60,256 bases of DNA from assembly GCA_938075585.1 (NCBI GenBank), contig CALJHG010000006.1, positions 1 to 60,256 of the forward strand, written 5' to 3'. Every line of letters starts with the position of its first letter. Position 1 is the stretch's first letter. The translations under genes were made by a program, and so were the position numbers. Shown here piece after piece: positions 7,809 to 60,256 of the stretch. The notes below the pieces were generated by a model that was given only the letters and a program-made list of their open reading frames with translations, had not been told where the DNA came from and did no database searches. The stretch is from an uncultured Gammaproteobacteria bacterium (lineage in GTDB: Bacteria > Pseudomonadota > Gammaproteobacteria > Ga0077536).

Positions 7809-9179
7809 TCATTTATTTTTGACCGATTTTTTCCGTTTCATCCAGTCCGAAATCGATTTTTGAGGGACCCTCGAAACCGCGAGACTATTTGCATTTACAT
7901 TATCTGTAATAGTACTCCCGGCACCTACAGTGGAACCAGTACCTATGGTCACGGGGGCGACTAATTGTGACCCCGAGCCAATAAAGACCCCATCTTGTAT
8001 GACAGTTTTATGTTTATTTTCACCGTCATAATTACACGTTATCGTACCTGCGCCGATATTGACTCGTTCACCAACTTCGGTATCGCCAACATAGCTAAGA
8101 TGATTAACTTTACTCATCATACCTATATCGGACTTTTTGATTTCCACGAAATTTCCGATTTTCCCTCTGTCTCCTATGAAAGATTCGGGTCTTAAGTGTG
8201 AGAATGGTCCAACCTGAGCGCCTTTTCCTACAAATGAATTTTGGACGACACAGTTAGGTAGTATTGTTGCTGAAGACGAAATCTCGGAGTCTGAGATGAT
8301 ATTATTAGAACCTATAGTAACGCGGTCACCCAAAACTACCCGGCCCGAAAAAACCGTGTTTACATCAATAAAAACATCTTTCCCGCAAATGAGTTCACCT
8401 CGAACATCAATCCTACTCGGATCTGCGACGGTCACACCGTCTCTCATAAGGTTCTTCACCACCCGTGCCTGAAGGGCTCGCTCGGTTGCCGCAAGTTGGT
8501 TGCGATCATTTACTCCCAAACCCAATAACGCGTCACTTAAAACTACCGACCCGACCTTCTTATTTAATTCGAAGGCAATCTTGATACAATCTGTCAAATA
8601 GTACTCATTCTGACCGTTTCTAGCTCCGATTTTCGGAATAACTTCTTGCAGGAACTCGGCGCTTGCGACCATGATGCCAGTATTTATTTCTTTAATTGAT
8701 CTCTGAGAGTCATCAGCATCGACATCTTCGACAATCGAAGTGATTTTGCCTTCTTTATCTCTGATAATTCGGCCATAGCCATCAGGGTTATCCGAATTAC
8801 TTGTTAGGACCGCAACATCGGAGCGAGATCCGCAATCTATCAATTGAGAAACTATTTCATCTGTTAAAAGTGGAACGTCACCGCTAAGAATCAATACCGC
8901 GCCCTTCTCAGAGAGATGAGGTAAAGCTTGTGCCACGGCATGACCCGTGCCGAATTGTTGCCGTTGCTCCACAAACTCAAGTTGCTCTCCCGCCAGATGT
9001 TCGCGCAACATCTCCTGTTGAGATCCGACTATCACGATTACATTCCCCGTGAGTTTCTTCGCGGTAGTTAGCACATGGTCTATCATCGGCCTACCAGCCA
9101 ATTTTTGCAAAACCTTCGGAAACGCAGAATTCATCCGTCTGCCTTTACCAGCTGCTAAAATTAAAACACTCAAACTCAT
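7809..9179 (-). CDS. glmU: bifunctional UDP-GlcNAc pyrophosphorylase / glucosamine-1-P acetyltransferase
   Basis: ILAAGKGRRM, GTGHAV, EYYLTD, GNFVEIK, HLSYVGD, NYDG; follows atpC. Confidence 0.98.
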   Translation of the reverse strand: MSLSVLILAAGKGRRMNSAFPKVLQKLAGRPMIDHVLTTAKKLTGNVIVIVGSQQEMLREHLAGEQLEFVEQRQQFGTGHAVAQALPHLSEKGAVLILSGDVPLLTDEIVSQLIDCGSRSDVAVLTSNSDNPDGYGRIIRDKEGKITSIVEDVDADDSQRSIKEINTGIMVASAEFLQEVIPKIGARNGQNEYYLTDCIKIAFELNKKVGSVVLSDALLGLGVNDRNQLAATERALQARVVKNLMRDGVTVADPSRIDVRGELICGKDVFIDVNTVFSGRVVLGDRVTIGSNNIISDSEISSSATILPNCVVQNSFVGKGAQVGPFSHLRPESFIGDRGKIGNFVEIKKSDIGMMSKVNHLSYVGDTEVGERVNIGAGTITCNYDGENKHKTVIQDGVFIGSGSQLVAPVTIGTGSTVGAGSTITDNVNANSLAVSRVPQKSISDWMKRKKSVKNK

Positions 9180-44600: not shown

Positions 44601-45791
44601 ATGAAGATTTACAAAGTAGGCGGTGCCGTTAGAGACTCGCTGTTAAAAAGAAGTCCAGAAGATACGGATTGGGTTGTAGTAGGAGCCAATGAAAACTACT
44701 TACTAAAAATGGGGTTTGATCGGGTAGGAAAAGACTTCCCTGTGTTCCTCCACCCTCATACCAAAGAAGAGTACGCGCTAGCACGACTGGAAAGAAAAAC
44801 TGGTGAAGGTTACCTTGGTTTTGAAACGACAACCCATGAGTCAGTCACTTTAGAAGAAGATTTATCGAGAAGAGACTTCACCATAAATGCTATGGCGTCG
44901 GATGAATTAGGTAATATAATCGATCCATACGGTGGACTTAATGACTTGAGGAAATGTATCCTCAGGCATGTAACCGAAGCGTTTTTAGAAGACCCCTTAA
45001 GGATTCTGCGTGGCGCAAGATTTGCAGCTAAACTTAATTTTTCCGTTGCGGATGAGACGATCGCCATAATGATGGAAATGGTGGCTAAAGACCAACTCTC
45101 AGAATTAAAAGCGGAGAGAATTTGGTCCGAATTTAAGAGAGCTATAGTCACAGATCATCCACTGGTATTTTTCAAGGTGCTAGCACAATGTCGAGCGTTA
45201 CCAAACCTATTACCAGAATTCAGCCCGCTTTTTGGGAAGTTTTTTAATGGAGAATCTCATTCACAGGATACAAAAATTCTGTCGCTGCTAGATAGAAAGG
45301 ATAGAATCGAACGCGACCCGGAGCTAGTTTTTGCCATTATCTGCCGAGCCTTATTTTTATATAACCAAGAAAATGGAGAGCTCACTTCCAGCCAAATAAG
45401 CTCTTTTTGCGATCGATTAAAGGTACCAAAAAAATTCAAAACTATCGCTAAAAGAGCCAGCGCCTTTAAGCTTATAAAAAAAGAATTTAGAACGCGGTTA
45501 GGCAATGAAATTATACGTTTACTCGATGCAGTTGGCGGCTTTAAAAATGACTACTTATTTTCGAAGCTATTGCTCCTATATGAACTTGAACTAGAAACCA
45601 AACGAGATACCCATAGCTATGTTTCTGCGAAAGAACTTCTGGCGGTAAAAAATGCCATAAAAAACATGGATAACAATGATTTGATCCAGAAAAATTTCAG
45701 TGGAGAGTCGTTCGCCGAGCAGCTCAAAACTAGGAGAATAGCACTCGCTAATGATATGCTTGCTCTGTCTGCCAGAGCTCACGGAGTCTAG
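44601..45791 (+). CDS. cca: tRNA CCA-adding nucleotidyltransferase
   Basis: VGGAVRD, DTD, GKDFPVF, EEYALARLE, RRDFTINAMA, EDPLRILRGARF. Confidence 0.93.
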   Translation: MKIYKVGGAVRDSLLKRSPEDTDWVVVGANENYLLKMGFDRVGKDFPVFLHPHTKEEYALARLERKTGEGYLGFETTTHESVTLEEDLSRRDFTINAMASDELGNIIDPYGGLNDLRKCILRHVTEAFLEDPLRILRGARFAAKLNFSVADETIAIMMEMVAKDQLSELKAERIWSEFKRAIVTDHPLVFFKVLAQCRALPNLLPEFSPLFGKFFNGESHSQDTKILSLLDRKDRIERDPELVFAIICRALFLYNQENGELTSSQISSFCDRLKVPKKFKTIAKRASAFKLIKKEFRTRLGNEIIRLLDAVGGFKNDYLFSKLLLLYELELETKRDTHSYVSAKELLAVKNAIKNMDNNDLIQKNFSGESFAEQLKTRRIALANDMLALSARAHGV

Positions 45792-47124
45792 AGTCACGAC
45801 CGCATTGGTATCTGTATAATTTATATCTAACTGGATTATTTAGATAGTAGTTTTGATGGTAGGACTCTGCAGGATAAAACTGTACAGCAGGTCTTATGGC
45901 GGTAACAATCTTATTATTTGGGAATCGAAAGTTCTGTAATTCTTCTAATTGGCGGTTCGTCTCGCTCTTTTCTTCCTGGTTTGAAAAATACACCACACTC
46001 ACGTACTGCTGCCCCCGATCACAAAACTGTCCTCCTGGATCAAACGGATCAATATTTTTCCAATAAACCTCTAAAAGTTGAGCGAACGAAATTTCTGATG
46101 AGTCGTAAGTTACCCTAATAGCCTCTACGTGACGTGTGTAGCCTTTTGCTACTTCGTTATAAGTTGCATTTTCCTTAGACCCTCCAATATAGCCTACCGT
46201 AGTAGCATTTACGCCGATCACCGAATCAAAAGGTTCTTCTAGACACCAAAAACAACCCCCAGCAAAAATAGCTGATTTGGTATTTTGTATCTGATCTTCC
46301 ACACTCACAGCATGAATTGAGGTGGAATTCATTGAAAATACGATTATAAAAAGTCCTAGAATAAGTCGGTATAAGATAAAGGGTAACATTCCAACCCTAT
46401 CTAGTAGTCGAATAAAATAATAAATCCCCCCATAGGCAAAAATAGCTGATAACGCAGTCATAGTTCCTAACGTAAGCCATTGTCCAGGGCTGATAACAGA
46501 ACTGTTAGCTACAATTTCGTAAACGACAGCCGCCAGTATTGTCGGGATTCCTAGTAAAAATGAAAACCTAACCGCACTTTCACGAGAAAAACCGAGCAAA
46601 AGAGCTGCCGATATTGTGACTCCCGAGCGGGAAGTTCCAGGTATAAGAGCAAGGGTTTGGATCATCCCAATAGATATCGCATCTCTCCAATTCATACTAT
46701 CTAAAAGTCGACTTTTACTGCCAACAGCATCCGAGGCCCAAAGAACTCCCCCGAATACGATGGTCATTACCCCTATTACATAAACAGATCTAAGTTCGGC
46801 CGCTATAAAATCATGAAATACTAAGCCAGAAAGTACTATTGGCAATGTGGCAACGATTAAACAAATAGAAAGAAATTTATCGCCACATCGTATGTCTTTC
46901 CGTTTCTTTGGGAACCATGAGTAGCACAGCCTATTAATATCTTTTCGAAAATAAACACATACCGCAATCAGGGATCCTAAATGAGCAGCGATATCAAGAC
47001 TCAGTCCTTGGTCGGTCCACGTGGTAAATTTAGCTACTAAAATCAAATGGGCGCTACTTGATACGGGTAAGAACTCAGTAACACCCTGAACAAAAGCTAA
47101 CGTTACTAGTTGTAGAAAAGTCAT
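45748..47124 (-). CDS. uppP: fused undecaprenyl-diphosphatase (UppP/BacA, about aa 1-264) and peptide methionine sulfoxide reductase MsrA (about aa 280-458)
   Basis: QGVTEFLPVSSSAH and PGTSRSG, then in the same frame FAGGCFWC, GQFCDRG, FYPAESYHQNYY. Confidence 0.9.
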   Translation of the reverse strand: MTFLQLVTLAFVQGVTEFLPVSSSAHLILVAKFTTWTDQGLSLDIAAHLGSLIAVCVYFRKDINRLCYSWFPKKRKDIRCGDKFLSICLIVATLPIVLSGLVFHDFIAAELRSVYVIGVMTIVFGGVLWASDAVGSKSRLLDSMNWRDAISIGMIQTLALIPGTSRSGVTISAALLLGFSRESAVRFSFLLGIPTILAAVVYEIVANSSVISPGQWLTLGTMTALSAIFAYGGIYYFIRLLDRVGMLPFILYRLILGLFIIVFSMNSTSIHAVSVEDQIQNTKSAIFAGGCFWCLEEPFDSVIGVNATTVGYIGGSKENATYNEVAKGYTRHVEAIRVTYDSSEISFAQLLEVYWKNIDPFDPGGQFCDRGQQYVSVVYFSNQEEKSETNRQLEELQNFRFPNNKIVTAIRPAVQFYPAESYHQNYYLNNPVRYKLYRYQCGRDSRLRELWQTEQAYH

Positions 47125-56826: not shown

Positions 56827-56903
<77 letters not shown>

Positions 56904-56913
56904 TCTTTCTTCC

Positions 56914-56926
56914 AATCAATAACTTA
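56914..56926 (+). promoter_or_regulatory. IHF binding site in the attL region
   Basis: AATCAATAACTTA matches WATCAANNNNTTR. Confidence 0.7.
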
Positions 56927-56968: not shown

Positions 56969-57010
56969 TGAGCCACATGCCCTCACTTCTGACCTACATA
57001 TGGCCTACAT
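56969..57010 (+). repeat. putative integrase arm-type direct repeats
   Basis: TGAGCCACAT (56969), TGACCTACAT (56990), TGGCCTACAT (57001). Confidence 0.6.
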
Positions 57011-57055: not shown

Positions 57056-58255
57056 ATGCACAAACTGATTACCAAGAAAGTTATAGAAACTATTCACCTT
57101 TCAGAGGGTAGAGAATTACTGCTGAGAGATACCGAACTAAAAGGATTCGGTATACGGATTAGTCCTTCAGGAAACAAGACCTTCTTTGCAGAAGGGAACT
57201 TCAATAGAAGTCGTCAAACTAAAAGACGTTCTTTGGGACGCTACCCTATTGTCCCTCTGGACACGGCGAGAGGAAAAGCTAGAGAACTCCTGTACCAGTG
57301 GTACATCGGTATGGATATAGAGAAACAGCATATGAAGACTGCTCAAGAGGCAGTAAATACCTTCACTCTGGAAGAGACTATTAATCGTTATTTTTCCTCT
57401 CGCTCGTTAAAGAGCGAAGCAGATTACAGACAGGTAACAAGGAGAGTATTCGGAGATTGGTTCGATAGACCTGTCAGGTCTCTAACCAGAGAAGATATCG
57501 AGAAACGATACTGTGACAGAGTATTTAAAAAGGGCTGTAAAGCACAGACGAATAAGGCGATGAGATATCTCAATGCCATTCTTAATTTCGCCTCAGCGGA
57601 GACGATAAACGGTACTCATCTCTTGCTTTCAAACCCTGTTCAAGTCCTCTCAGATAAGCGTTATGACCGCTCTGTGAAGCCTAAAAAAACCTTTATAGAA
57701 GCTTCTCAATTATCTGGTTGGGTAAACGCTGTTAACTCTTTGTGCACTCCTCTGGCAAGGGATTTATTGCTCCTTCAGATACAGACAGGATTAAGAGACA
57801 GTGAGGCTAAAGGACTCCTTTGGGAAGATGTAGACTTCGAAAATAGACTGTTCACCGTCAGGAATACGAAGAACGGTAGTGACCTTACTATCCCTATGTC
57901 AGAGCAGCTATATGGTCTATTGTCAGAGAGAAAGAATACTGCTACTTCGGATATCTATGTTTTTCCGAATAAGACCCAGATAGGTCCTGTGACTTCTATT
58001 CGGAAACAGAAAGATAAGGTAATAGGAGCGACAGGAATACAGTTTACTCATCACTGTTTAAGGAGAACCTTTGCATCTTTGCTTAACAAGGAATTAAGTA
58101 TCGACATACCCACGATATCTGTTCTTCTTAATCACACTCCTCAAGGAGTAACCCAGAAACATTATTTGACTTCATCACCGAAAGATTTTAGAACGGTCTA
58201 TCAACAGTTCAGTAGTATTGTTCTTAAAAACGAGGAAGTAGTCAGTGGTACTTGA
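57056..58255 (+). CDS. tyrosine recombinase/integrase with P4-like arm-binding N-terminus
   Basis: LRDTELKGFGIRISPSGNKTF, LGRYP; catalytic TGLR, TKNG, HCLRRTFAS, LLNH, KHY. Confidence 0.95.
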   Translation: MHKLITKKVIETIHLSEGRELLLRDTELKGFGIRISPSGNKTFFAEGNFNRSRQTKRRSLGRYPIVPLDTARGKARELLYQWYIGMDIEKQHMKTAQEAVNTFTLEETINRYFSSRSLKSEADYRQVTRRVFGDWFDRPVRSLTREDIEKRYCDRVFKKGCKAQTNKAMRYLNAILNFASAETINGTHLLLSNPVQVLSDKRYDRSVKPKKTFIEASQLSGWVNAVNSLCTPLARDLLLLQIQTGLRDSEAKGLLWEDVDFENRLFTVRNTKNGSDLTIPMSEQLYGLLSERKNTATSDIYVFPNKTQIGPVTSIRKQKDKVIGATGIQFTHHCLRRTFASLLNKELSIDIPTISVLLNHTPQGVTQKHYLTSSPKDFRTVYQQFSSIVLKNEEVVSGT

Positions 58256-58275
58256 TAGGCTCATAGCAAGCGAAG

Positions 58276-59670
58276 ATGTCAAACGACTCACATAGACTAC
58301 AAGACACGTCGGTTCACTTTAGCTACCCCGAGCAATTTGATGATTTCTGCGCAGACCTATGGTCTGAATTTCTAAGCGAAGCGTTTCCTCCCGCAAAAGG
58401 AGTAGGCAGACGACCTCGGGTTTCTCGCGAGGAGCAAATGCGAGTTATTTGGATGAATCTATATTGGCAATGGCATGTTGACCCTGGGCGGATTACCAGC
58501 GTCCCCATGGATGTTCGAATATATGCCAAAGATAAACACTACCAACAACTAGGATTAACCAGAATTCTACCTGACATGATTAGACATCTTATTGATACGG
58601 GCGTGCTCACACTTGTTAAGAAAGGCTCTGAAATCTCAGGCAAAATGACTCGAGTTAAGCCATCCAAAAAGCTCAGGAATCGGTTTAAGCGTTTTGCCCC
58701 TGAAATTAAGCCTGTGCAATTAAAAGATGAGAATAAAAAGCCGATTAACTACGAAGAAACAGCGGATACCTTACGATGGGGAGGCATACTAAGGCGCTAT
58801 AACGCGCTATTAGAACGAACACACATTGATGTCGGGCACTTTACGAATACAGACCATAAAAAGTACGGCTTAAACTTATCACGACGCAAACACGTCTACA
58901 GACAATTCAATAATAGTAGCTTTTCACAATATGGGCGTATTCACGGCGCTTGGTGGCAACTCCTTCCTAGCCAGTGGAGAAAAGATATTCTTATTGATGA
59001 CTTTGAAACTGTCGAGGTAGATTTCACCGCGATGTCGACATATATCACTTACGGAATAGAAGGCGTAAAGCCCCCAATGAAAGACCCTTACAAGCTGAAA
59101 ACGCCGAACGAGTTTATAGATGGTCCCACTCAGAGAAAGTTTCTAAAAAAACTTATTAGCATCGCTTATAACACTGCGAGCGATGCCGATGCACTGTGGA
59201 CGTTTTGCGAAGAGTACAAGAAAGTGGTCACGCCTGAGTTTCTGGCATTTTTTAGAAACCACGGGGAAAGCCTCCTGGAAGCCTTCAGAGATGCACACCC
59301 AGCGATAAGTAAGTACTTATGTACTAATAAAAAACATGGCTTAACGACCATGTTTGAGGATTCACAGCTTGCTATGGCACTAATTGACCACTTTACTGAC
59401 CGCGAAGTACCAATACTGACAGTACACGACTCTTTTGTAGTCCCTGAATACGAAGCTGGGAACTTAATCACCAAAATGACGTCCCTTTTCTTCGAAAGAT
59501 TTGGATTCAAACCAGACCTTAAACAAGAAAACATCAGTATGGTTCAAGCCCAAAGACTCCTAAGAGACGACCCGTTAATCAACGCTAGTCCTCTAGACTA
59601 CTTTCGCACATCTGAACGAAGTGAAGATTACTACTCAAGAAGAGAAGAATTTATAAGTAATATAGCTTAG
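58276..59670 (+). CDS. uncharacterised stand-alone family A polymerase-like (palm/fingers) protein
   Basis: YGRIHGAWWQLLP (R221), VEVDF (D249, motif A), RKFLK (R287/K291, motif B), LTVHDSF (H384/D385, motif C); no exonuclease motifs seen. Confidence 0.65.
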   Translation: MSNDSHRLQDTSVHFSYPEQFDDFCADLWSEFLSEAFPPAKGVGRRPRVSREEQMRVIWMNLYWQWHVDPGRITSVPMDVRIYAKDKHYQQLGLTRILPDMIRHLIDTGVLTLVKKGSEISGKMTRVKPSKKLRNRFKRFAPEIKPVQLKDENKKPINYEETADTLRWGGILRRYNALLERTHIDVGHFTNTDHKKYGLNLSRRKHVYRQFNNSSFSQYGRIHGAWWQLLPSQWRKDILIDDFETVEVDFTAMSTYITYGIEGVKPPMKDPYKLKTPNEFIDGPTQRKFLKKLISIAYNTASDADALWTFCEEYKKVVTPEFLAFFRNHGESLLEAFRDAHPAISKYLCTNKKHGLTTMFEDSQLAMALIDHFTDREVPILTVHDSFVVPEYEAGNLITKMTSLFFERFGFKPDLKQENISMVQAQRLLRDDPLINASPLDYFRTSERSEDYYSRREEFISNIA

Positions 59671-59675
59671 CTATC

Positions 59676-60209
59676 GACGCGTTTAAGACGCGTCTACCTT
59701 TAATTATTAAATCTCTAAATAACGCTCTTACTAAATACTTAACCTTATTCTTCCATGTTTTACATGGAATATCTTAAGGTGATTAATTGGCTATAGGTCA
59801 GAAATCATAGAATGCTTTCTTCCCTTTTAAACTCATAAAGATTACTCCCTGTGCTGCACCATATCGCACAGGAAGTATCCTCAATTCCTAACGTGTTTTA
59901 TGTACTCATAAAAAGGTAGAAAGCTACCTTGTAGCTTTACTACCTCCACCCAATATAATCTCTTAATCTTTCAACTTCCCTTCCCTCCAATATACCCATT
60001 CATTTATTAATCTAGAGTCCACAGTCGCGACCCTTTATCATAAATATATCAGAGGAAAGTACCGCCTCAGGTACTACGTCTCTCTCAATTAGGGGTATCA
60101 GCAGCACCCTTCAGAGCGATTCTAAGCCCCTCTGTGAGGTTTTGACTATTCTTGAATAAACATCTGTAAATATTGTATTTAAATCTATTAGAGAGCCTTA
60201 CAGAGCGTT
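59676..60209. other. ORF-free cluster of inverted repeats (candidate structured RNA or single-strand origin/promoter region)
   Basis: Stems at 59676-59694, 59742-59780, 59843-59877, 59896-59913, 59914-59945, 60058-60075, 60091-60111. Confidence 0.6.
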
Positions 60210-60256
60210 TAAAATGCATACAGTAACAAAGTCTAAGATGGTAGAATAAATACTAA

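Follow-up and report, generated by a model that had tools for sequence, protein, structure and literature searches.

The stretch of DNA analysed here (60,256 nt, hereafter the window) is the entire contig C6 of a 1.95-Mb gammaproteobacterial genome, and it ends at an assembly break within an island. The genes toward this end are arranged in the order rpoD, tRNA-Met(CAT), tyrosine integrase, and a 464-aa polymerase ORF, followed by a non-coding stretch (Table 1). A 100% copy of 62 bp from the 3' part of the tRNA-Met gene lies at C55:1415-1476 and is the likely attR, and the pair of 9-bp repeats of the attL side recurs at C55:1334-1353 and in a related island (L059). An integrase at a tRNA gene, a duplicated tRNA 3' end, and arm repeats, as in tRNA-targeting integrative elements, are all found here, with attL and attR on separate contigs. 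We infer that C6 and C55 are the two ends of one island whose middle is unassembled. IHF-consensus boxes are also found behind the tRNA genes of L059 and L063 and just before that of L003.

Table 1. Features of the island portion of the window (positions counted from its first letter)
Feature	Position	Strand	Basis or remark
tRNA-Met(CAT), integration target (attL side)	56827..56903	+	3' 62 bp recur at 100% on C55
IHF-consensus box beside attL	56914..56926	+	match to the consensus
Tandem 9-bp repeats, likely integrase arm sites	56990..57009	+	sequence repeats
Tyrosine integrase with arm-binding domain, 399 aa	57056..58255	+	PF00589 E 1.5e-19, PF13356 E 5.6e-09
Minimal PolA/T7-RNAP-superfamily polymerase, TV-Pol-like, 464 aa	58276..59670	+	alignment, predicted structure
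Module A, hairpin cluster tied to this polymerase subfamily	59671..60020 (end approximate)		folding, conservation
h1, 7-bp stem, 5 nt past polymerase stop	59676..59694		arms in sequence
h2, perfect 8-bp stem, 3-nt loop	59751..59769		arms in sequence
h3, 12-bp stem with one mismatch, 11-nt loop	59843..59877		arms in sequence
h5, 14-bp stem, 3-nt loop, terminator-like on minus strand	59914..59945		arms in sequence; minus-strand U-tract
Module B, common to the island family whatever the integrase or polymerase	~60055..60256		truncated at the contig end; relatives have ~290 bp
130-mer resembling a strong gyrase site, predicted cut near 60160	60097..60226		E. coli gyrase matrix

The integrase and the polymerase are shuffled among related islands (window 57056-59670 compared with L003, L058, and L063). 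In L003 the window's polymerase is paired with a different, 526-aa integrase, and in L063 the window's integrase accompanies a different polymerase subfamily. Only the first 51 nt of a tRNA-Lys(TTT) gene precede the L003 integrase (L003:1411-1461), and this tRNA appears to be interrupted and not restored. Positions 59792-59803 match the attL arm region over 10 bp in inverted orientation, probably by chance, as the match is altered in L005. No joint of an excised circle was seen in the RNA-library contigs, for which a stretch without attR was compared.

The polymerase consists of a ~140-aa N-terminal domain followed by the polymerase core. R221, D249, R287, K291, and H384-D385-S386 are invariant in an alignment of 34 sequences. 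In the predicted structure (pLDDT 81.7), residues 141-416 match yeast mtRNAP (Z 14.6, rmsd 3.5, 254 aligned), T7 RNAP (Z 13.4), and apicoplast PolA (Z 13.1), so that the model is about as close to family A DNA polymerases as to the RNA polymerases of mitochondria and T7. The invariant residues and the structure matches thus uphold the earlier designation of this gene as polymerase-like, the protein having a PolA/single-subunit-RNAP fold. The position that we take to be that of the steric-gate glutamate, according to Klenow/T7 numbering, is Ser here and His in most homologs, and the presumed position of the motif-B tyrosine is an invariant Asn; because of these two residues, an RNA or DNA product is not callable from sequence. 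The TV-Pol hallmarks (thumb, Arg hairpin, two palm Asp residues, and fingers RxxxK) are represented by R221, D249, D385, R287, and K291, a likeness that follows the description of published members in parts of PMC2579912 rather than a profile comparison.

With 4233 clusters at E<=0.001, this is a large family, and homologs occur in marine alpha- and gammaproteobacteria. Our protein matches phrog_4756, a family of unknown function. Pfam and NCBIfam contained no family for it, a PDB sequence search gave no match, and residues 10-150 had no usable match in the Atlas. Among the 34 members, none matched nuclease families and 3 weakly matched PF00940. No tested activity for this family was found in the literature searched. 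Three metagenome loci (L003, L004, and L005) encode the same polymerase with 93-94% identity, L003 and L004 being near-identical.

More distant homologs (~420-440 aa) annotated as hypothetical occur in 80-140-kb phages (L013-L051 and phage records), and two viral contigs each carry two copies. In L009, L010, L011, L012, and L083-L129, the assemblies break in or just after the polymerase gene, or the gene lies on 1-4-kb contigs, and these frequent breaks suggest multicopy or variable elements.

A preliminary description of the non-coding stretch, made from the letters alone, had proposed a dense array of dissimilar hairpins, most of them possibly enclosed by a long-range pair, that would serve either as a structured ncRNA or as an origin or hairpin-promoter region for the adjacent polymerase. 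All eight of its stems are present in the sequence, h3 with the one mismatch described and h7 with the help of one G-T pair, and h1, h2, h3, and h5 are indeed different from one another. The stretch is also, as had been noted, the longest ORF-free one in the window, with 585 nt (its length within the window, as the contig end cuts it) against 249 or 362 nt for the runner-up, depending on the ORF cut-off. Positions 59671-60256 fold with -137.8 kcal/mol on the plus and -168.2 kcal/mol on the minus strand (z of -5.19 and -5.50), far better than the shuffled controls that had been suggested as a check (0/100 shuffles equal). Among the 59 ORF-free stretches of at least 300 nt in the genome, the first 300 nt of this one rank first (z -10.1, next -4.4); the ranking used 12 shuffles, and with 15 shuffles the same 300 nt gave z -6.9, so that these z values are rough.

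The folding signal is confined to 59650-60050 (150-nt windows, best z -5.9). Since the 150-nt windows from 60000 onward give z of only -1.3 to 0, h6 and h7 are not above chance, and the dense array is real in 59650-60050 but not beyond. Of the long-range pair (59721-59728 with 60202-60209), the 5' arm is changed in both relatives, and the region of its 3' partner lies past a 3.5-kb gene block from the hairpins in L003. Homology between L003 and the window ends at window position 60020 and restarts at 60056 past this block, which contains an excisionase, a weak SSB match, and HTH genes; in L005 the interval is occupied by a third block, also found in L058. The feature is real, but it consists of two independent modules, A and B, and not of one hairpin array: a single enclosing ncRNA is not borne out, as the long-range pair is unconserved and the last third of the stretch forms a module of its own that lacks structure.

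The third block is a non-coding module C, which is 87% identical between L005:905-1125 and L058:7221-7442 and lies between the polymerase and module B in these two islands, which carry different polymerase subfamilies.

The stems of module A are conserved. Using stems defined on the window's own sequence, L003 differs from the window at 0/83 stem positions and 18/267 others (p 0.009), and L005 at 6/79 stem positions and 69/249 others (p 1e-4); for comparison, the four-fold sites of the polymerase gene differ at 24/168 (L003) and 16/64 (L005). As judged from these substitution patterns, the stems are under selection. Individually, h1 is retained in L003 and has one U-G change in L005, h2 has an identical stem with an altered loop in L005 and one change in L004, and the inner stem of h3 is retained with a varied loop in L003 and L005. 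As read by eye, a single compensatory change from C-G to T-A preserves the inner stem of h5 in L005, where h5 no longer has its U-tract on the minus strand. In contigs of three RNA libraries, one h1 pair is broken, and the h5 variants fall in the loop, fall in the bulge, or give G-T. The covariation evidence comes from three distinct sequences with one clear compensatory pair, and the covariation term of RNAalifold is unfavourable (+2.31), partly from misalignment of h5.

A hairpin tract behind the whole polymerase family was rejected as a candidate. A z of -3 or below in the 300 nt after the gene was obtained for 5/77 loci, namely the window, L003, L005, and 2/74 other homologs, as compared with 2/76 controls inside genes and 1/66 upstream; the loci left out of the 77 included three genome loci with short tails and 39 viral loci. 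A covariance model of module A found only its three training sequences in 98 sources, and a set of 81 genomes added none, and the module A pattern was not found in the viral contigs. In the sequences compared, module A thus occurs only behind this polymerase subfamily. Of the two original proposals, a hairpin origin or promoter fits such selected, subfamily-linked stems, and one enclosing ncRNA is not supported.

Could module A then be a discrete structured ncRNA of ~300 nt, either extending a transcript at its 3' end or transcribed from a promoter of its own, that binds the polymerase as a template, primer, or regulator? Its folding is the strongest of the 59 long intergenic stretches, its stems are conserved with linkers near neutral, and several changes yield plus-strand G-U pairs. 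Other wobble-type changes favour the minus strand, so that, as previously remarked, wobble pairs single out neither strand. The Rfam search that had been proposed found no family in the region, by gathering score or by E-value (best 24 bits against a cut-off of 49), the covariance model recovers no sequences beyond those it was trained on, the enclosing helix is unconserved, and promoter-like sites are no more numerous than expected by chance (2 against 2.0). Contigs of the three RNA libraries cover the integrase, the polymerase, and both modules patchily at a depth under ~9, with tRNA depths in the thousands for two of the three libraries; since such contigs may partly stem from DNA and reveal neither the level nor the strand or ends of a transcript, they speak neither for nor against it. 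We consider a discrete ncRNA quite unlikely, and less likely than terminators or mRNA-end hairpins, which rank as a close rival for module A.

As RNA-level punctuation, h1-h3 would protect and end the integrase-polymerase mRNA, and h5 would terminate the convergent excisionase operon of fuller elements. Accordingly placed, h1 begins 5 nt past the stop codon, h5 is terminator-like on the minus strand, and in L003 the leftward excisionase gene ends at the edge of module A, with the minus-strand terminator-like site of h5 exactly where that leftward operon ends; moreover, folding of this region is not family-wide. Yet four to five selected stems across 350 nt exceed the needs of two terminators, and L005, which has no excisionase operon beside module A, keeps the inner stem of h5 but not its U-tract. 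The observation that the stems mostly lack terminator U-tracts applies to the plus strand, where it also speaks against punctuation, but not to h5 on the minus strand. Punctuation is a somewhat doubtful account of module A. The selection on the stems and their link to the polymerase subfamily would agree with a hairpin origin or promoter, and wobble-type changes on both strands are what is expected for cruciforms. We therefore name as our own, tentative choice that module A might be an origin or priming site for the polymerase. No DnaA boxes were found in the region with the DnaA-box consensus.

Module B has a wider distribution than module A. It also occurs on contig C56 of the same genome (G000:C56:6578-6824), behind a different polymerase subfamily in L058, joined to a tRNA-Phe and an integrase stub in L059, and ~100 bp behind a tRNA-Gln without an integrase in L060, while L061 and L208 have its 3' half alone. 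It is present in 5/7 genomes of the genus and 0/74 other genomes of the family; a class sample of 400 genomes added only three matches of 28-29 bp. A blastn comparison of the region with phages and plasmids gave short, chance-level matches only.

Minimal islands at tRNA-Phe or tRNA-Gln, which have lost both integrase and polymerase, keep module B or its 3' half with cargo directly after it (L059:3425-4043, L060:888-1353, L208, and G000:C56:6578-6824). Beyond the window end, a small conserved imperfect palindrome lies at the 3' end of module B, past an IHF-type box and right before the cargo (L058:~7950-7980, L005:~1395-1415, L059, and L060). The cargo behind module B in L005 (L005:1805-3546) is presumably a polyamine cassette, with two S-adenosylmethionine-decarboxylase-like ORFs and one spermidine-synthase-like ORF.

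A core 16-mer of module B (window 60111-60126) is found in 50 viral stretches of unrelated phages, often intergenic, and its viral flanks consist of alternating G+C and A+T blocks. Because of this alternation in the flanks, we drew an analogy to the gyrase site of pSC101 par and scored module B with a gyrase matrix. The matrix, derived from E. coli, was rebuilt from supplementary data of PMC6379681 (Suppl. DS4A, DS10) and was composition-centred on account of its G+C bias, the centring being our own modification. Our implementation reproduced two published scores and placed two known strong sites ~2 units below the published values; the known pSC101 site was its top-scoring position in the entire plasmid, and in a 3-kb stretch the annotated Mu cut likewise came out on top.

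The 130-mer in module B has a centred score of 14.9, which ranks 3rd of 1,944,306 genome positions (raw score 7.3, rank 215), and the known sites of Mu and pSC101 have centred scores of 18.2 and 17.8. Other copies of module B reach 17.5, 16.5, 15.3, 14.8, and 13.3. Only 1/2000 shuffles of module B attain its score, as against 1348/2000 for module A, which is at chance, and with the core 16-mer masked the 130-mer still scores 12.5. In four of five copies the same-register score exceeds that obtained by random placement of the substitutions (p 0.003, 0.016, 0.012, and 0.039), the exception being the C56 copy (p 0.21); this comparison is ungapped and thus rough for L005 and L060. Strong gyrase sites of the Mu and pSC101 type have a G+C periodicity of about 10.75 bp in their arms; here the periodicity peaks at 11.0 bp in both arms, with a power of 0.5-0.6 compared with ~0.9-1.0 for the Mu right arm and pSC101. 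Within 3 kb of polymerase homologs, scores of at least 14 occur in 0/59 downstream and 1/55 upstream flanks. Given these counts and the 2/74 hairpin tracts, neither module is required family-wide.

All seven module B copies that reach far enough contain an IHF-consensus box. It lies 96-100 bp from the predicted cut in the four copies measured, and such boxes occur in the genome at 0.086 per kb. The window stops just short of this IHF-type box, and contigs of the three RNA libraries run beyond the window end in its direction. Genes for GyrA and IHF-alpha (gyrA and ihfA, above cut-off) are present in the host. From its sequence features, module B is probably bound by gyrase and IHF, and this gyrase reading of module B is firmer than the origin reading of module A. 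That the region is decayed island debris with patterns arising by chance is suggested by its mosaic junctions and several truncated copies, but the stem-specific conservation, the retained phasing, and the fixed IHF-type box in 7/7 copies make this extremely improbable, and the conservation tests have already largely refuted it.

Only a handful of elements are known to have strong gyrase sites, namely Mu, pSC101, pBR322, and BIMEs (PMC6379681). Like pSC101 par and the Mu SGS, module B contains a phased predicted site of ~130 bp that the E. coli gyrase matrix places among the highest-scoring positions of its genome, in a cis-acting position on a mobile element, and its right arm resembles the pSC101 arm in the same register, at equal distance from the predicted cut. 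It differs from them in residing in a tRNA-integrated island, in being A+T-richer with a weaker pure G+C periodicity, and in having a fixed IHF-type box ~100 bp away. With module A taken as punctuation, module B would be an unrelated gyrase/IHF site for circle supercoiling or for the meeting of att ends, a role in end synapsis being ascribed to the Mu SGS in excerpts of PMC10052514. This separate function for module B seems rather unlikely to us.

Module B could instead be mainly a packaging or transfer signal through which a helper phage would carry the islands, integrase-less minimal ones among them; in that case the phasing that resembles a gyrase site would belong to a cos/pac-type bent-DNA site with IHF. 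Module B is what the minimal islands retain, a 27-nt part of it matches at 25-26 positions upstream of the terminase small-subunit gene in one marine phage family, and in 7/35 distinct viral contexts a terminase gene is found no more than ~700 bp from the core 16-mer (44/64 listed ORFs scanned, some contexts related, and no matched control). In the remaining contexts the neighbours are tail, replication, or unknown genes, none of 50,697 phage records matches the region over a long stretch, and the scanned ORFs of L003 included no recognisable terminase or capsid gene. Both the phasing as a packaging feature and the signal itself are improbable. A narrower candidate, module B as a pac mimic from one phage family, was demoted in view of the 50 viral stretches with mixed neighbours.

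When the 16-mer is masked, 26/35 viral contexts score z>2 with the gyrase matrix, at offsets chosen after seeing the data. On the viral contigs L153-L202, the 16-mer lies in phased, gyrase-site-like flanks, often beside terminase or replication genes. It may be that strong gyrase sites are common in mobile elements and go unannotated. A literature search with the 16-mer-type motif returned only two primer tables, in which a similar word occurs in primers for pAMbeta1-type plasmids (the tables of PMC8727053 and PMC4055356).

The two-module anatomy, the stem selection in module A, and the gyrase-matrix score and conservation of module B are established by these comparisons. As our preferred reading, we tentatively propose that modules A and B form a cis-acting replication or maintenance region of the island that acts at the DNA level. 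The integrase would excise a circle, and host gyrase would load at module B and keep the circle negatively supercoiled, like pSC101 par beside its origin. Supercoiling together with IHF bending would open the short-loop inverted repeats and A+T-rich linkers of module A, the TV-Pol-like enzyme would recognise one of its hairpins and prime synthesis, and host enzymes would complete the copy. The step in which gyrase-supplied supercoiling helps the short-loop hairpins to open for the polymerase is conceivable and similarly tentative. Against an origin, no helicase gene was seen in the longer related element L003 (only some ORFs scanned), and modules A and B are separated by 3.5 kb in L003 and by a third block in L005; their adjacency in the window may be a deletion product.

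In a bolder and unlikely form of this proposal, the islands would replicate via a supercoiling-switched hairpin origin, at which the 464-aa single-chain enzyme primes without a helicase or partner protein. The element's own strong gyrase site would pump negative supercoils into the circle until the cruciforms of module A extrude, and the polymerase-less mini-islands would keep the gyrase/IHF module and be mobilised in trans. If true, a first cognate cis site would thereby be known for a large polymerase family (4233 clusters) that is as yet uncharacterised.

TV-Pols beside lambda-type integrases have been predicted to be primase-polymerases (Iyer, Abhiman and Aravind 2008, PMC2579912), and the parts of that paper covered here name no origin or hairpin region. 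Our element shares with those elements a minimal superfamily-A core with an N-terminal extra domain and no nuclease domain, adjoining a lambda-type integrase, but unlike them it has no D5 helicase that we could see. An A-family polymerase domain on an integrative element is also found in CcPol-MP of SCCmec, for which excerpts of PMC10061031 report de novo priming, and in PolA-SSB primases (PMC10061031 and PMC7581432, in part). These, according to the same excerpts, depend on an OB-fold partner encoded next to them and are accompanied, in Bacillota, by a helicase and serine recombinases. Our element, by contrast, has a tyrosine integrase and no adjacent partner, with a weak SSB match elsewhere in L003 only; neither in the window nor in L003 is there an ORF for an OB-fold partner or helicase between integrase and polymerase or after the polymerase.

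The early hairpin promoters of N4 likewise combine a polymerase of the single-subunit superfamily with short inverted repeats, and the N4 vRNAP requires gyrase-driven hairpin extrusion, as described in part of PMC4496689. That vRNAP is a virion enzyme of ~3500 aa with three sequence-conserved promoter hairpins, in contrast to a 464-aa protein and dissimilar stems here; repeated hairpins sharing a stem-loop sequence, as in N4, are not found, since h1, h2, h3, and h5 differ. As small tRNA-targeting integrase islands of marine bacteria with cargo and deleted derivatives, the islands resemble the VEIMEs (PMC9618062) and the tycheposons. Differently from such marine phage satellites, no terminase or capsid gene was recognised in them.

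In the literature searched, which lay outside subscription journals and preprint supplements, neither a gyrase site nor a hairpin origin was found described for islands of this kind. We regard the combination of a predicted strong gyrase site and a hairpin region in a TV-Pol-like integrative element as new and its parts as being of known kinds. The conserved predicted gyrase site in a marine island family, together with its core in unrelated phages, suggests that mobile elements commonly carry their own docking site for gyrase. With this locus, a widespread polymerase family gains a candidate substrate that is short and defined, through which the 2008 primase-polymerase prediction becomes directly testable.

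Outside the island genes, the window contains on its minus strand (45748-47124) an ORF that we take to encode a UppP/BacA-like undecaprenyl-diphosphatase; it continues in frame into a presumed MsrA-like domain, an apparent fusion.
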